A stretch of 64,000 bases of DNA, taken from Narcine bancroftii. Lineage: Eukaryota. This document shows, one piece after another, positions 47,891 through 52,169 of the stretch (positions are counted from its first letter, which is position 1; the number at the start of each line of letters is the position of its first letter). A program made the position numbers and the translations under genes. The notes beneath the pieces were generated by a model. That model worked only from the letters and a program-made list of their open reading frames with translations, was not told the origin of the DNA and searched no databases. The stretch lies in the NCBI RefSeq assembly GCF_036971445.1, contig NC_091470.1, forward strand, positions 145,390,001 to 145,454,000, written 5' to 3'.

Positions 47891-49190
47891 AATACAATTT
47901 CTTAAAAAGGGAAATTTACTTTAATATATTTGGAAATTCCTGGATATTCTCCATGCGTTTTGTTGAAATGTCAAGGGGATGAGGCTGGAGGAGTTACTGA
48001 GTAAAGCTGCAATTAACAGGAACAATAAAAAGGAAATCATTTCAAGTACAATGATAATTACTTTATAGCTCTGGAGATTAATTCAACATTCACACAATGG
48101 CACTTGCAATAACTCCCTCCCAAAAAAAAATCAGTTCCTAAAGGAGATCAGGAGCTGAGGTAAATGGCAAAAAAAATTCCCAGTGACAGATGTGAGAAAC
48201 TGATCTTAATCCCTCAAATTTTTCATGGAATGTCTCGGATGACAAGTGCTTTGCATATGCAACACTTGCTTCCAGTCACTGTTTCCCCCAATACGCCTTT
48301 TTGCTTGACCCTGATCCATAGAGGAATTGAACAACAAGCAATACACAAGAGCCTGCAGATGCTGGAATCTTGGCAAACAAGGAGTTGCAGCAGACCAGGG
48401 AGCAACCGTGGGTACACATGGTTGGACCCTTTATTTATAAAAAGGTCGACCATTTCTACCGATGGAGGCTGCCTGATCCTGTCAGGTAATTGTTCCAAAC
48501 GCAATACAGGACATTAAACACATGGTGGAGTCAACGTTTGTTCTTCCTTCACTTTTCTTCCCCCCCCCCCCCACCCCCCCACCCCCCACCCCACATCCAA
48601 TACCCGACACAGTAAAGTCTGCAGATAGCCTGCAGCCCCCTCTATTTCTCCACAAGATTACGAGATACTGTTTTAGAATCAGAATTTATCATCATGAATA
48701 AGTCACAAAATTTGTTGTTTTGTGGCAGCATCAACGTGTAAACATTTATATAAACCAGCTTAAAAAAAAAACATAAAGAGTGCACAGAAGTCGAAAAACA
48801 ACAGGATATTCTGACCTTGAGGATTAAGATGGGAGCTCTACACCCTAGATAACTGCAGAGCAGGAAATTACTTGTGATAAATCTTATGCAAGAAATCTAG
48901 CAAAGAAAGCCAACTTTTGTTCTGTATGATAAGGTTGAGCTATATAAACTGTAGAGACTGGATAGTATAGGTCAGTCTTGGGGAATAGCTCACTGTGCAG
49001 GTGATCTACGAACTAACGACTGAACCAGAGCTCTGTTAAGCTTTATTCTTGTGGGGGGGGGAGTCACGTGATGGAGTAGTGGCCGGACGGTGAACTCCAG
49101 CCCTCTCCAGAAAAGTCGGGAAAAACAAGAGAAAACACAAAGGCACAGAAATAAAAGTTAAAGAAAAGTGAGTATAAAGGTGGAAAGAAG

Positions 49191-50420
49191 ATGGCGACAA
49201 AAAAAGAAAAATCGAAAGCAACGGCAAGAAGAGAGGAAGAGAAGACAAAGGAGGAAAAAGGTGAAGGCCTTACCTGTCCGAAGAGGCCCGCTGCGGAGAG
49301 AGAAACCCGCTCCCTCAGGTCGGTAAATAATGGACTACAAAAATGGCTCGCTGAGCCGAGTAAAAGTGCGCAACCGCGCATGTGCGATATTTCGCGCATG
49401 CGCGATGCGAATGAAAAAAAACACACCGACGGGAGGGGGGACCAGCTGGGGAGTCGATCTCCACAGCCGGCAACGACAGCTGCAGAACACCTGCAGCAAG
49501 AAGAGACCACAGAAGACAATAGAAACAAGAAAGAAGAGGAGGAAAGGGCACCAAAGAAACAACAGATGGTCAACCCAGAGGAAGAAGAAGAGGAAGAGGA
49601 AGAGTACAGGGAAATAGAAGAAGAAAAGAAAGGCAAGGTAAAGGATATACTTGCTCTTATTAAAGGATACATGGAGTCATTTAAAGAATGGCAAACACAG
49701 GAATTTAAGGATTTAAGAAAAAGAATAAACAACACAGAAGAGAAAATAAATAAAATGGAGATGACCTTAACAGAAATGGGAAAAAAAATGGACAAGATGG
49801 AAGAGCGGGCAGTAGCAGCAGAAATGGAGGTAGAAGACTTAAAAAAGAAATTGGAGAAATCTAATAAAAAAACTAAAGAGACACAAGAACTACTAGCTCA
49901 AAAAATAGATACAATGGAAAACCATAACAGAAGAAATAACATAAAGATAGTGGGCCTTAAGGAAGATGAAGAAGGCAAGAATATGAGGGAGTTTATAAAA
50001 GAGTGGATCCCTAAGACCCTAGGATGTCCAGAACTACAGCATGAAATGGAAATAGAAAGGGCACATAGAGTATTGGCCTCTAAACCACAACCACAACAAA
50101 AACCAAGATCTATTGTAGTAAAATTCCTAAGATATACTACAAGAGAAAAGGTACTGGAGAAGACAATGGAAAAAGTAAGAGAGGGCAACAAACCACTGGA
50201 GTATAAAGGGCAAAAAATCTTCATTTATCCAGATATAAGTTTTGAACTCCTAAAGAAGAGAAAAGAGTTCAATACAGCAAAGGCGATTTTATGGAAGAAA
50301 GGGTATAAATTTATACTAAAGCATCCAGCGGTATTGAAAATATTTATTCCAGGACAACAAAACAGACTATTCTCAGATCCAGAAGAAGCACGAAAATTTG
50401 CAGAACAATTACAAAAATAG
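49191..50420 (+). CDS. L1 ORF1p (Transposase_22-type RNA-binding protein: coiled coil, RRM, CTD), intact, 409 aa
   Basis: Heptad-rich coiled coil followed by RRNNIKIVGLKE, IERAHR, PRSIVVKF, IFIYPDIS and LKHPAVLKI, all characteristic of vertebrate L1 ORF1p. The start aligns with MAPKKEK of the second copy. Confidence 0.92.
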   Translation: MATKKEKSKATARREEEKTKEEKGEGLTCPKRPAAERETRSLRSVNNGLQKWLAEPSKSAQPRMCDISRMRDANEKKHTDGRGDQLGSRSPQPATTAAEHLQQEETTEDNRNKKEEEERAPKKQQMVNPEEEEEEEEEYREIEEEKKGKVKDILALIKGYMESFKEWQTQEFKDLRKRINNTEEKINKMEMTLTEMGKKMDKMEERAVAAEMEVEDLKKKLEKSNKKTKETQELLAQKIDTMENHNRRNNIKIVGLKEDEEGKNMREFIKEWIPKTLGCPELQHEMEIERAHRVLASKPQPQQKPRSIVVKFLRYTTREKVLEKTMEKVREGNKPLEYKGQKIFIYPDISFELLKKRKEFNTAKAILWKKGYKFILKHPAVLKIFIPGQQNRLFSDPEEARKFAEQLQK

Positions 50421-50558
50421 ACTGAGGGAGGAAGACGGGTAATGAGAGTTAAAATAATCACGATTGATATGTATGTGGGTAAAGACAAAAATAGACTGAG
50501 GGATGAAGACGGGTAATGAGAGTAAAAATGATCACGATTGATATGTATGCGGGTAAAG
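50411..50558. repeat. 74-bp tandem duplication spanning the ORF1 stop and inter-ORF spacer
   Basis: acaaaaatagactgaggga...gggtaaag at 50411-50484 and 50485-50558. Confidence 0.92.
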
Positions 50559-51019
50559 AGGTATAAGAGTGAATAGAGACAATGAGCATACATGAATGTA
50601 TCTGTACTTAGAGGAAAATATAGATAGTATAGACAAGAATTAATAAGGGAAGGTAATGGAATAGAGAGAATAAAGAGGGAATTAAAAGAGTGACCTTTGT
50701 GACATATGAAAAGTGAAATCTTTTCTGGGGGAGGCGGGGTGGGGGGAAATAGCGGTCACTGCAAAATCAGTTGACGCTTGCGAGTGGATTCGCAAATCCA
50801 AATGGAGAGGGGAGATGTGGTTGTCTGACAAGGGATAAAGGACAACTCAGGAGGTGAAGGGGAGATTGGGGATAAATAAGATAGAAATAGGAGAATAAGG
50901 AAAATGTTAGATGTTGTAGGAATGTTGTCTTATAAAGAGTTGAAAATAAGAAAACAGAAATGGAAAAGGAGGAAAGGTAATGATGGAAAAACGGAAAGAG
51001 AAGATAAACAAAATATAAA

Positions 51020-51227
51020 AGGGCTACGCTGAACTATATGTCTTTAAATATTAATGGAATACATAACCAAATTAAGAGGAAGAAACTACCAAATTTAAAT
51101 GAATAAATGTATTCCATTAGAAAAAATAACATATTGGTTAAGAAATAATATTGAAATATTCGAACAAGTATAGGAGCCTTACATTAAATACAATAGCGAA
51201 AACCTACCGGGGACAAACATTACCTAA
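51020..51227 (+). pseudogene. Vestigial L1 ORF2 (first ~26 codons joined to last ~42 codons)
   Basis: ATLNYMSLNINGIHNQIKRKKLPNL (compare MAMLNYMTININGIYNQIEGKRLLNF in the minus copy; start ATG replaced by AGG) is joined directly to MNKCIPLEKITYWLRNNIEIFEQV*EPYIKY, a fish-type L1 ORF2 C-terminus. Confidence 0.85.
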
Positions 51228-52169
51228 GTTGATGGAAGGAGAAGGAAAGAAAAGAATGGACTCAGTAGAATTTCTGGTGTAATTTTGTTGAATGACAACA
51301 TTGTCTGACTGGCTTAATGCAACCTAGATTGTATACCTAAAATGGATGAGAGTGGGGGTGGGGGGGTGGTTTGGGAGGAAAGGGGGGGGGAGAAAAAGTC
51401 ACTGTATATGTGTGAAAAAGAAATAGTGTATATCATGGCTAATGTGATTTATGGTGTGAAAAATAAAAAAATTTATAAAAAAAAAAAAAAAAAAAAAAAG
51501 AGTGCACAGAAGTCAAAGTCAGGCAGCATCTTTGATGGCAGCGGGAAGAAGCTGTCATACCGTAAGTTTTCATCTTCAGGCTCCTGTACCTTTCCCCCTC
51601 AATGGGAGCAGAGTGAAGAGGGCATGGCCTGGATGGTGGGGGTCCTTGAGGATAGAGGCACCGCCTCATGTAGATGTCCTCAATGGAGTGAAATCTGGTG
51701 CCTGTGATGTCACAGGCCGAGTTAAAAACCCTCTGGAGTTTTTTCTTGTCCTGAGAGTTGGCACCTCTGTACCAGGCAATGATGCAACCAGCCGGAATGC
51801 TCTCCACAGTGCATTCTCCAAGTTTGTCCCATTCTTGCAAATGTTGAACTTAAACCTGCATAGTTCAATTAGCTGAGCAAACGAGGAGATGAGAAGACTC
51901 AGCAGGTCAAGGAGAGAAATGGGCGTCAATATTTTGGGTCGACCTTTCATTGGGAAAGGGAGAGAAGACATAAAAAGGGGCTGAGCCAAGATGTGGTAGG
52001 TACTGGATAGGAGAAGGTGGGAGAGGTCGAGGGGACCACTTTGGGGGAAGGGTATGAGGGAGTGAAAGAGATCAGATTGAAAAAGGTCAAATTGACTAAT
52101 GCAAAAAACGATAAATGATGCTGGAGAAACTCAGCAGGGCAAACAGTGGACTTTACAAAAAGGAAGAGA

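Follow-up and report, generated by a model that had tools for sequence, protein, structure and literature searches.

The window, a stretch of 64,000 nt from the genome of the electric ray Narcine bancroftii, carries a young L1-derived, ORF1-only copy whose structure supports insertion by target-primed reverse transcription. The insertion occupies 48793-51496, that is, 2704 bp between its target-site duplications (TSDs), including 260 bp of non-L1 sequence at the 5′ end, and the order inside this single TSD pair is 5′ UTR, ORF1, ORF2 stubs, 3′ UTR and poly-A. An earlier note on this DNA had described a young, L1-derived element restricted to ORF1, and the TSD, the pure tail, the open ORF1 and the ORF2 stubs all bear out this description. 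We slightly favor the interpretation that the insertion recently arose from a non-autonomous L1 lineage of the electric ray that encodes ORF1 only and resembles the mammalian HAL1 elements.

The earlier note had placed the 5′ boundary at 49053 and reported a perfect 18-bp TSD. The perfect duplication at a T/AAAG site was indeed recovered, but its left copy, AAAGAGTGCACAGAAGTC (48775-48792, + strand), defined as the longest exact match to the sequence following the tail, does not adjoin 49053, so that the proposed boundary was off by 260 bp. The right copy (51497-51514, 18 bp, + strand) matches the left one perfectly, and the 15-bp non-A core of the TSD occurs exactly twice in the window, with a chance expectation of about 1e-6 per 1000 positions. 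No 10- to 20-mer that ends at 49052 is repeated on the + strand, and a TSD adjoining 49053 was rejected. The L1 5′ end itself, a G run followed by a short 5′ UTR (49053-49190, + strand), was correctly recognized, as homology with the 5′ end of the other L1 copy in the window (32530-35604) starts at 49056/35604. The 5′ UTR and the start of ORF1 make up a CpG-island-like stretch, of which the window has few (GC 0.50 and CpG observed/expected ratio 0.98 over 49001-49500). At the other end, the 3′ UTR (51228-51476, + strand) harbors a G-rich tract and, as had been claimed, an AATAAA signal (51462-51467) and a pure poly-A: the tail is an uninterrupted stretch of 20 A (51477-51496, + strand) within a 23-A run (51477-51499), the last 3 A of which belong to the TSD. 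The poly-A tail, the TSD and the endonuclease-type T/AAA site by which L1-clade insertions are recognized are thus all present, and both L1 termini are kept, indicating an internal deletion rather than a 5′ truncation.

The 260-bp leader (48793-49052, + strand), which lies within the TSDs, has a GC content of 0.39 and a CpG observed/expected ratio of 0.2. It is unique in the window, where no significant match was found (E 0.78 or worse), and it was therefore rejected as an in-window repeat; a structured RNA, as in U6-type chimeras, was discarded as well, with no Rfam match at E ≤ 1 over 48600-51900 and none at gathering score. A 5′ transduction is characterized by foreign sequence separating the 5′ TSD from the start of the L1, and the leader, which occupies this place, most likely represents an upstream flank or an exon carried over from the source element. 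By eye, the leader displays a TATA-like motif near 48940, which is unlikely to be the promoter since ~150 nt of copied sequence precede it.

An older non-LTR element appears to be interrupted by the insertion, as judged from the TSD, the translation and the general features of this type of element. Its decayed C-terminal coding end, identified by translation, lies at 51515-51850 on the - strand, and its apparent tail at ~48660-48774, left of the left TSD; we take this element to be Rex1/Babar-like. No relevant Pfam match was found for 51515-51850 (the Marek_A and Atracotoxin rows, with E 0.03-0.04, are below the cut-off and were judged to be due to chance), its assignment to the Atlas PF09004 cluster (score 0.88) was below the recognition threshold, and no copy of the flank repeat showing a continuous empty site was found in the window (best E 0.053). 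Elsewhere, Pfam analysis of 63 of the 249 long frames of the window returned only one RVT_1 fragment (1001-1381), and a p53-like site at 45426 was not above chance (17/100 shuffles).

ORF1 (49191-50420, + strand) is open throughout, in agreement with the intact 409-aa ORF1p announced by the earlier note, and its product matches human ORF1p over residues 197-403 (E 5.5e-13; ~24% identity). The predicted layout comprises a disordered region (residues 1-128), a coiled coil (129-246), an RRM (~250-332) and a CTD (~336-408). In the structural model, the coiled coil, RRM and CTD are all formed, the top Foldseek matches being the human ORF1p trimer (E 1e-10), and a Pfam scan of the sequence gave PF02994 at sub-threshold level only (E 0.011-0.027). 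The predicted fold is thus complete and is that of an L1-clade ORF1p. By sequence, the nearest ORF1ps are those of Narcine and Hypanus. Among the RefSeq models of Narcine, four correspond to ORF1p, and three of these carry host-gene names; two Narcine RefSeq ORF1ps display 81-88% and 84-98% identity on two ORF1 segments. The RefSeq protein P0006 is identical at 395/401 positions and ends with the same C-terminal EQLQK, while P0001 extends 7 residues more; the subfamily therefore has at least one further intact ORF1 with a shortened C terminus. A 74-bp tandem duplication (50411-50559, + strand) covers the end of ORF1 and the start of the inter-ORF region, and is probably older than the insertion because its units differ at 4/74 positions. 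The inter-ORF region itself spans ~600 bp (50421-51019, + strand), and its 50610-50853 part is 71% identical to the spacer of the 32530-35604 copy.

Judging from its sequence, the element has no functional ORF2. The 5′ remnant (51020-51097, + strand, 26 codons) corresponds to the first strand of the endonuclease and the start of a helix; its codon 1 is AGG, compared with ATG in the 32530-35604 copy, and its codon 24 encodes Pro, compared with Leu in that copy and in P0162. The 3′ remnant (51099-51227, + strand, 42 codons), identified by alignment to the ORF2p C terminus, is interrupted by a premature TAG (51171-51173), at a position where two full-length ORF2ps share a conserved Trp. The earlier description of these stubs thus holds for the 26 codons, the lost start, the 42 codons and the junction, but had missed that the 3′ stub is itself broken. 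In alignments with a 1254-aa ORF2p, the two stubs cover residues 1-20 and 1216-1246, respectively, and none of 300 shuffles reached either score. Among the long or full-length ORF2 comparators (P0043, P0070, P0099 and P0162), P0162 matched both stubs, P0099 the C-terminal stub only, P0070 matched weakly (4/300 and 12/300 shuffles), and P0043, whose own ends are atypical, matched neither. The C-terminal stub used as a query of the protein database gave no match (2 candidates, none scored), and neither stub matches PDB sequences. At the deletion junction (51097-51099, + strand), ~3.6 kb of ORF2 are missing and the two stubs are joined out of frame, such that reading across gives ...NLNE, then a stop; no long homology is visible at the junction ends. 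This junction is present once in the 64,000-nt window, to which the search was confined. An exact look-up of seven element-derived peptides, two of them junction-spanning, returned 0/7, a weak test given that the window's own ORF1p was also absent.

The age of the insertion can be set against the decay of the ORF2 stubs. The TSD is perfect and the tail is pure, and the CpG observed/expected ratio is 1.18 in the 5′ part of ORF1 vs. 0.56 in the 5′ part of the 32530-35604 copy. Of the 6 differences from P0006, 2 can clearly be assigned to this copy as derived states, 2 to P0006, and 2 are unpolarized; the private divergence of ORF1 is ~0.3-0.7%. Within only 201 nt, the stubs have nevertheless lost the ATG and acquired a stop at the conserved Trp and a Pro in the helix, the ancestral ATG, Trp and Leu being deduced from distant comparators (78% nucleotide identity; 48% amino-acid identity). 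At the implied divergence of 0.35-1.4%, the probability of at least two kills (loss of the start or gain of a stop) in 201 nt is 0.0009-0.013, in a test that was set up after the changes had been seen and that ignores hypermutation near the break. At 5% divergence the kills become less surprising (P 0.13), but ORF1 would then carry ~43 amino-acid changes and would have remained open with P 0.07. The lost start codon may not count as a kill by itself, because human ORF2 translation is AUG-independent (PMC11485995). Moreover, P0006 may be encoded by a full-length L1, or may represent an allele of the present locus from a different assembly, in which case the dating would no longer hold. Since the stubs are over-damaged relative to the age of ORF1, the template was probably ORF2-dead before insertion, which is why we lean toward a HAL1-like lineage; the excess decay of the stubs gives indirect support, from sequence comparison, to mobilization in trans of an already ORF2-less template.

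This decay also weighs on the alternatives. One of them, which we consider unlikely, is that the deletion was a one-off event during insertion: a competent, 5′-transduced L1 RNA would have been mobilized by its own ORF2p in cis, and 3.6 kb lost by a reverse-transcriptase jump or by prior splicing, as in SpIREs. Such an event would respect the cis preference that is the norm for L1 and would account for the single junction copy in the window; spliced L1 RNAs do integrate (PMC5860796), and an AG acceptor before 51098 is possible in the cognate full-length parent. However, the start loss, the TAG and the Pro would all have to postdate a young insertion (P 0.001-0.013 for two kills in 201 nt), and the sole comparator, the 32530-35604 copy, has no GT right after the 5′ stub position, where it continues TTC CTG, with the reservation that it is a distant comparator and not the cognate parent. 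SpIREs are likewise internally deleted L1s with a tail and a TSD, but those described in that study have lost the 5′ UTR or 5′ UTR/ORF1 and are compromised for further rounds (PMC5860796), whereas the deletion here took out ORF2 and shows no evident splice sites.

Stubs that predate the insertion would also be expected if a single dead L1, already deleted, had been read through from a host or lncRNA promoter and retro-copied once or a few times in trans in the manner of a processed pseudogene, with ORF1 unselected. The 260-bp leader points to an external promoter and shows that the element's own promoter was not needed for the RNA of this copy, which fits such a passenger too, and the RAP1GDS1-L1PA2 case illustrates how a compromised L1 can be revived by a host promoter (PMC13174262). 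Neutral ageing should however have damaged ORF1 as it did the stubs, while ORF1 has stayed open and its product differs from P0006 at no more than 6 residues, making this scenario doubtful as well. Finally, it is very unlikely that a full-length L1 was inserted and ORF2 deleted later, or that the assembly collapsed, for although post-insertion rearrangement is seen in the 32530-35604 copy (internal duplication, 3′ truncation), the young insertion leaves little time, there is no long repeat at the join and no N in the window, and the excess damage of the stubs would be left unaccounted for.

If the HAL1-like reading is correct, an ancestral L1 would have lost ~3.6 kb of ORF2 internally while keeping both ends, the state found in the present copy, and the deleted form would have gone on retrotransposing with ORF1 under selection, its functionless ORF2 stubs gathering the start loss, the nonsense codon and the helix-breaking proline. 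The element RNA would produce its own ORF1p, coating the RNA in cis as established for L1 and HAL1, and would borrow ORF2p in trans from a contemporary full-length L1 outside the window. This ORF2p would have nicked the T/AAAG site, primed on the poly-A tail and left the 18-bp TSD, the marks of which are in place. The start of the RNA lay 260 nt or more ahead of the L1 5′ end, and an upstream promoter, from which the source element was transcribed or to which it was spliced, may account for this 5′ transduction. The earlier note had assigned the role of helper to the family represented at 32530-35604 (- strand), an older, dead L1 of a related subfamily that serves here as a comparator only. 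Its ORF1 is scattered over three frames with stops, its ORF2 contains an internal 164-bp duplication and ends ~300 residues in, and neither a tail nor a TSD was found. Its ORF1 is ~76% identical to that of the young copy (65% and 77% on the two ORF1 segments). Being frameshifted, 3′-truncated and more distant than the two Narcine RefSeq ORF1ps, this dead copy was rejected as an autonomous ORF2p donor. None of 14 ORF2-type matches bears a Narcine name, which is weak either way as 13/14 are without a name. A bolder version, which we consider rather unlikely, is that electric rays independently evolved, outside mammals, an ORF1-only L1 family that is currently active, and that its master copy captured the foreign 260-bp leader, or a promoter, now found at the head of some members. 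The element would then be a young composite retroposon in the course of exchanging its 5′ end, and host genes would use its ORF1 as transcribed isoforms.

HAL1 arose several times in mammals (PMC5753468), and rat RNHAL1 is described as having ~7500 copies, still propagating and 98% identical to active L1 in its 5′ part (PMC2241872). Like HAL1, the element is L1-derived, encodes ORF1p only and keeps the L1 5′ and 3′ ends; unlike HAL1, it resides in a cartilaginous fish, derives from a fish-type L1 and is headed by 260 bp of foreign sequence. For HAL1s, families with many copies are documented, whereas the present element is known as one copy. From sequence, descent from a mammalian L1 is not seen, and any family here would be a separate origin rather than a HAL1 orthologue. 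ORF1-only LINEs are known beyond mammals, which makes such an origin less surprising. TRE5-A.2 of Dictyostelium discoideum, which similarly kept ORF1 and has a large ORF2 deletion, is efficiently moved in trans through the ORF2p of the full-length element, as reported (PMC3159450); there, trans-mobilization is experimental, whereas here it is deduced, and TRE5-A.2 is amoebal, tRNA-gene-targeted and has modular ends. HeT-A and Ag-Sponge (CR1 clade) are bipartite non-autonomous LINEs with ORF1 present (PMC5786205), and among telomeric Jockey elements that are ORF1-only, ORF2 was lost in dozens of independent Drosophila lineages (10.1101/2025.06.09.658640). HeT-A and Ag-Sponge differ in belonging to other LINE clades with other ORF1 types, HeT-A being telomere-targeted. 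As for the leader, 5′ transductions mostly carry near-full-length L1 (PMC13174262); MAP3K13-L1PA5 and RAP1GDS1-L1PA2 similarly show, within one TSD, a near-complete L1 5′ end preceded by foreign sequence (PMC13174262), but keep ORF2 and move in cis. Our literature search found no report of an ORF1-only L1 in cartilaginous fish.

With a young copy that still carries both ORF2 stubs, the position of the founding deletion can be fixed to the single base, and the leader provides a barcode for the source locus, which could show whether the deleted form was the template, a tracing that old HAL1 families rarely allow. Were the deletion a one-off, the element would be an ordinary rearranged L1 insertion. 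If it belongs to a family, the HAL1 strategy of keeping ORF1p and borrowing ORF2p would be seen again within the L1 clade, this time in a cartilaginous fish distant from mammals, and would support the idea that ORF1p made in cis gives a parasite RNA its edge in competing for ORF2p despite cis preference.

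The focal element is real: a young L1 insertion that retains only ORF1 and includes a 5′ transduction that had been overlooked. Its 3′ end carries AATAAA, a run of 23 A residues and an 18-bp repeat, bearing out the earlier note, which had described AATAAA, a pure poly-A and a perfect 18-bp target-site duplication (TSD). The extent proposed there (49053..51499) does not hold at the 5′ boundary, since the left TSD copy lies at 48775-48792, leaving 260 bp between it and the L1 5′ end, which was placed by homology to an older L1 copy in the window (49056 vs 35604). The 15-bp non-A core of the TSD occurs exactly twice in the window, in the two TSD copies, and no 10- to 20-mer ending at 49052 is repeated on its + strand. 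In translation, the flanks can be read as a single older, minus-strand non-LTR element whose coding end lies to the right of the insertion and whose tail lies to the left; this element, presumably Rex1/Babar-like, is an Atlas lead scoring 0.88, and neither Pfam nor in-window searches confirmed its identity. Given the unique TSD pair outside it and flanks reading as a single older element, the 260-bp leader (48793-49052) most likely belonged to the copied RNA. The leader matches nowhere else in the window and has no match in Rfam. The insertion has the form of the 5′ transductions described in near-full-length human L1s (PMC13174262), and would have arisen when an RNA initiated upstream of the source element underwent target-primed reverse transcription. 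The leader's final 15 bp (49038-49052) are unique on the window's + strand, begin with AAG after TT, an endonuclease-like site, and may represent the TSD of the source element itself. The copy is young, as had been claimed, given its perfect TSD, its pure tail and the CpG island retained over its 5′ end (CpG observed/expected 0.98; 1.18 in the 5′ part of ORF1, vs 0.56 in the old copy).

Translation of the window gives an open frame of 409 codons at 49191-50420, so that the 409-aa ORF1p is indeed intact. By sequence, it had no Pfam match at 0.001 (PF02994 was sub-threshold, E 0.011-0.027), and phmmer against PDB matched human LINE-1 ORF1p over residues 197-403 (E 5.5e-13). An AlphaFold model built from a six-sequence alignment (mean pLDDT 68; pLDDT ≥90 at 103 residues) predicts a disordered N terminus, a helix at 129-246, then RRM and CTD elements, and all 11 Foldseek matches at E≤0.001 were to human ORF1p. 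Five homologues were found among 5502 candidates, ranked as three RefSeq proteins of Narcine bancroftii, a torpediniform batoid, then Hypanus sabinus, then an eel. Several relatives from Narcine and Hypanus (P0002, P0003, P0004 and P0006) carry host-gene names (FAM122B, GrpE-like, STXBP6, TEFM), reflecting either mis-annotation or ORF1 exons captured by host transcripts. Cluster member P0006 (XP_069785941.1, annotated as a TEFM isoform) is identical to the focal ORF1p at 395/401 positions and stops at the same residue. These matches point to N. bancroftii or a near relative as the host. P0006 is probably a different locus, given six substitutions and two indels and the window's miR-34a, which by human synteny lies far from TEFM; it could instead be an allele of the focal locus in another assembly. 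Compared with P0006, the focal ORF1 has six extra codons at 49375-49405, where the sequence is CG-rich, nearly palindromic and also conserved in the old copy, and two extra residues in the P/Glu-run region.

What is left of ORF2 are its first 26 and last 42 codons (51020-51097 and 51099-51227), whose translations match residues 1-20 and 1216-1246 in P0162, a 1254-aa ORF2p with 63% identity to the other endonuclease fragment in the window. Neither alignment score was reached by any of 300 shuffles, in support of the proposed truncation; about 3.6 kb is gone, and the stubs are joined out of frame. The loss of the ORF2 start also stands, with AGG where the old copy has ATG. As a caveat to counting this as a kill, translation of human ORF2 does not require an AUG (PMC11485995). 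The stubs (201 nt) further carry Pro for Leu relative to the old copy, and TAG replacing a Trp conserved in P0162 and a medaka ORF2p. Under a neutral model, the probability of at least two start or stop kills is 0.0009 at 0.35% divergence, 0.0035 at 0.7%, 0.013 at 1.4% (an upper bound) and 0.13 at 5%, where ORF1 would be expected to show ~43 amino-acid changes and would stay open with probability 0.07; this test was devised after the changes were seen, with stub ancestral states taken from distant comparators. The dating depends on one protein, P0006: two of the six differences are clearly derived in the focal copy, two in P0006, and two have no assigned direction. Because two or more kills are improbable at such low divergence, the simplest reading of the sequences is that the stubs decayed through earlier generations while ORF1 was kept.

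Such decay is what an ORF1-only lineage predicts, in which the RNA would make ORF1p in cis and obtain ORF2p in trans, and this is the candidate explanation that we favor somewhat. That the ORF2 deletion arose during the focal insertion itself, by template jump or splicing, is unlikely, and a single dead source element carried by a host promoter is also doubtful; taken together with the ORF1-only lineage, the latter makes it fairly likely that the deleted form was itself copied. A later deletion or an assembly error is quite improbable. A 74-bp duplication in the spacer, whose units differ at 4/74 positions, looks older than the insertion and is equally compatible with all of these hypotheses. 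The deletion junction occurs once in the window. Exact protein look-ups found 0 of 7 element-derived peptides, the C-terminal stub scored nothing as a protein query, and 0 of 14 ORF2-type matches were named from Narcine, each a weak negative.

The autonomous L1 family lending ORF2p had been taken to be represented by the old copy at 32530-35604 (-), which does not qualify: its ORF1 is disrupted across three frames, with stops, its ORF2 homology stops near residue 301, and both tail and TSD are absent. Its identity to the focal ORF1p is 65% and 77% over two segments, on which the relatives P0001 (73/83 and 60/61) and P0002 (67/83 and 51/61) are closer. Moreover, a 164-bp stretch of its endonuclease region (33175-33338, -) is duplicated, at 95% identity, at 33521-33684, upstream of the ORF2 start. 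Any ORF2p helper would lie outside the window.

Elsewhere in the window, which holds several interspersed repeat families, each with many copies, a mir-34 family precursor at 8494-8567 (-) scores above the Rfam gathering score; its mature arm reads as miR-34a. A CpG-island-like stretch at 62500-64000 has, on the minus strand, a GC box at 63506, TTTAA at 63499 and a GTGAG donor at 63296. The transcript hosting miR-34a could have its first exon here, in which case the insertion would lie antisense within that transcript's long intron. A decayed retroelement fragment at 1001-1381 (-) has a weak RVT_1 match below cut-off (E 0.0011), and short tandem duplications lie at 1282-1424, 40021-40128, 54024-54095 and 61047-61219 (periods 62, 44, 35 and 58).

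HAL1 elements encode ORF1p alone and are described as having several origins in mammals (PMC5753468, PMC13756887), and rat RNHAL1 is the closest likeness to the focal element among them (PMC2241872, PMC8535693). The ORF1-only kind extends beyond mammals, to HeT-A and Ag-Sponge (PMC5786205) and TRE5-A.2 (PMC3159450), and dozens of ORF2 losses are reported in Drosophila telomeric elements (10.1101/2025.06.09.658640); SpIREs offer a further comparison (PMC5860796). The literature searched, which did not extend to most subscription journals, Repbase or Dfam, where a prior listing is possible, yielded no cartilaginous-fish example of an ORF1-only L1; the available portion of a tree-of-life L1 survey (PMC5203782) mentions neither "shark" nor "skate." The focal element works like HAL1, with ORF1p only, but is not HAL1 by descent; probably, though not provably, it is a member of an independently arisen HAL1-like family in electric rays.
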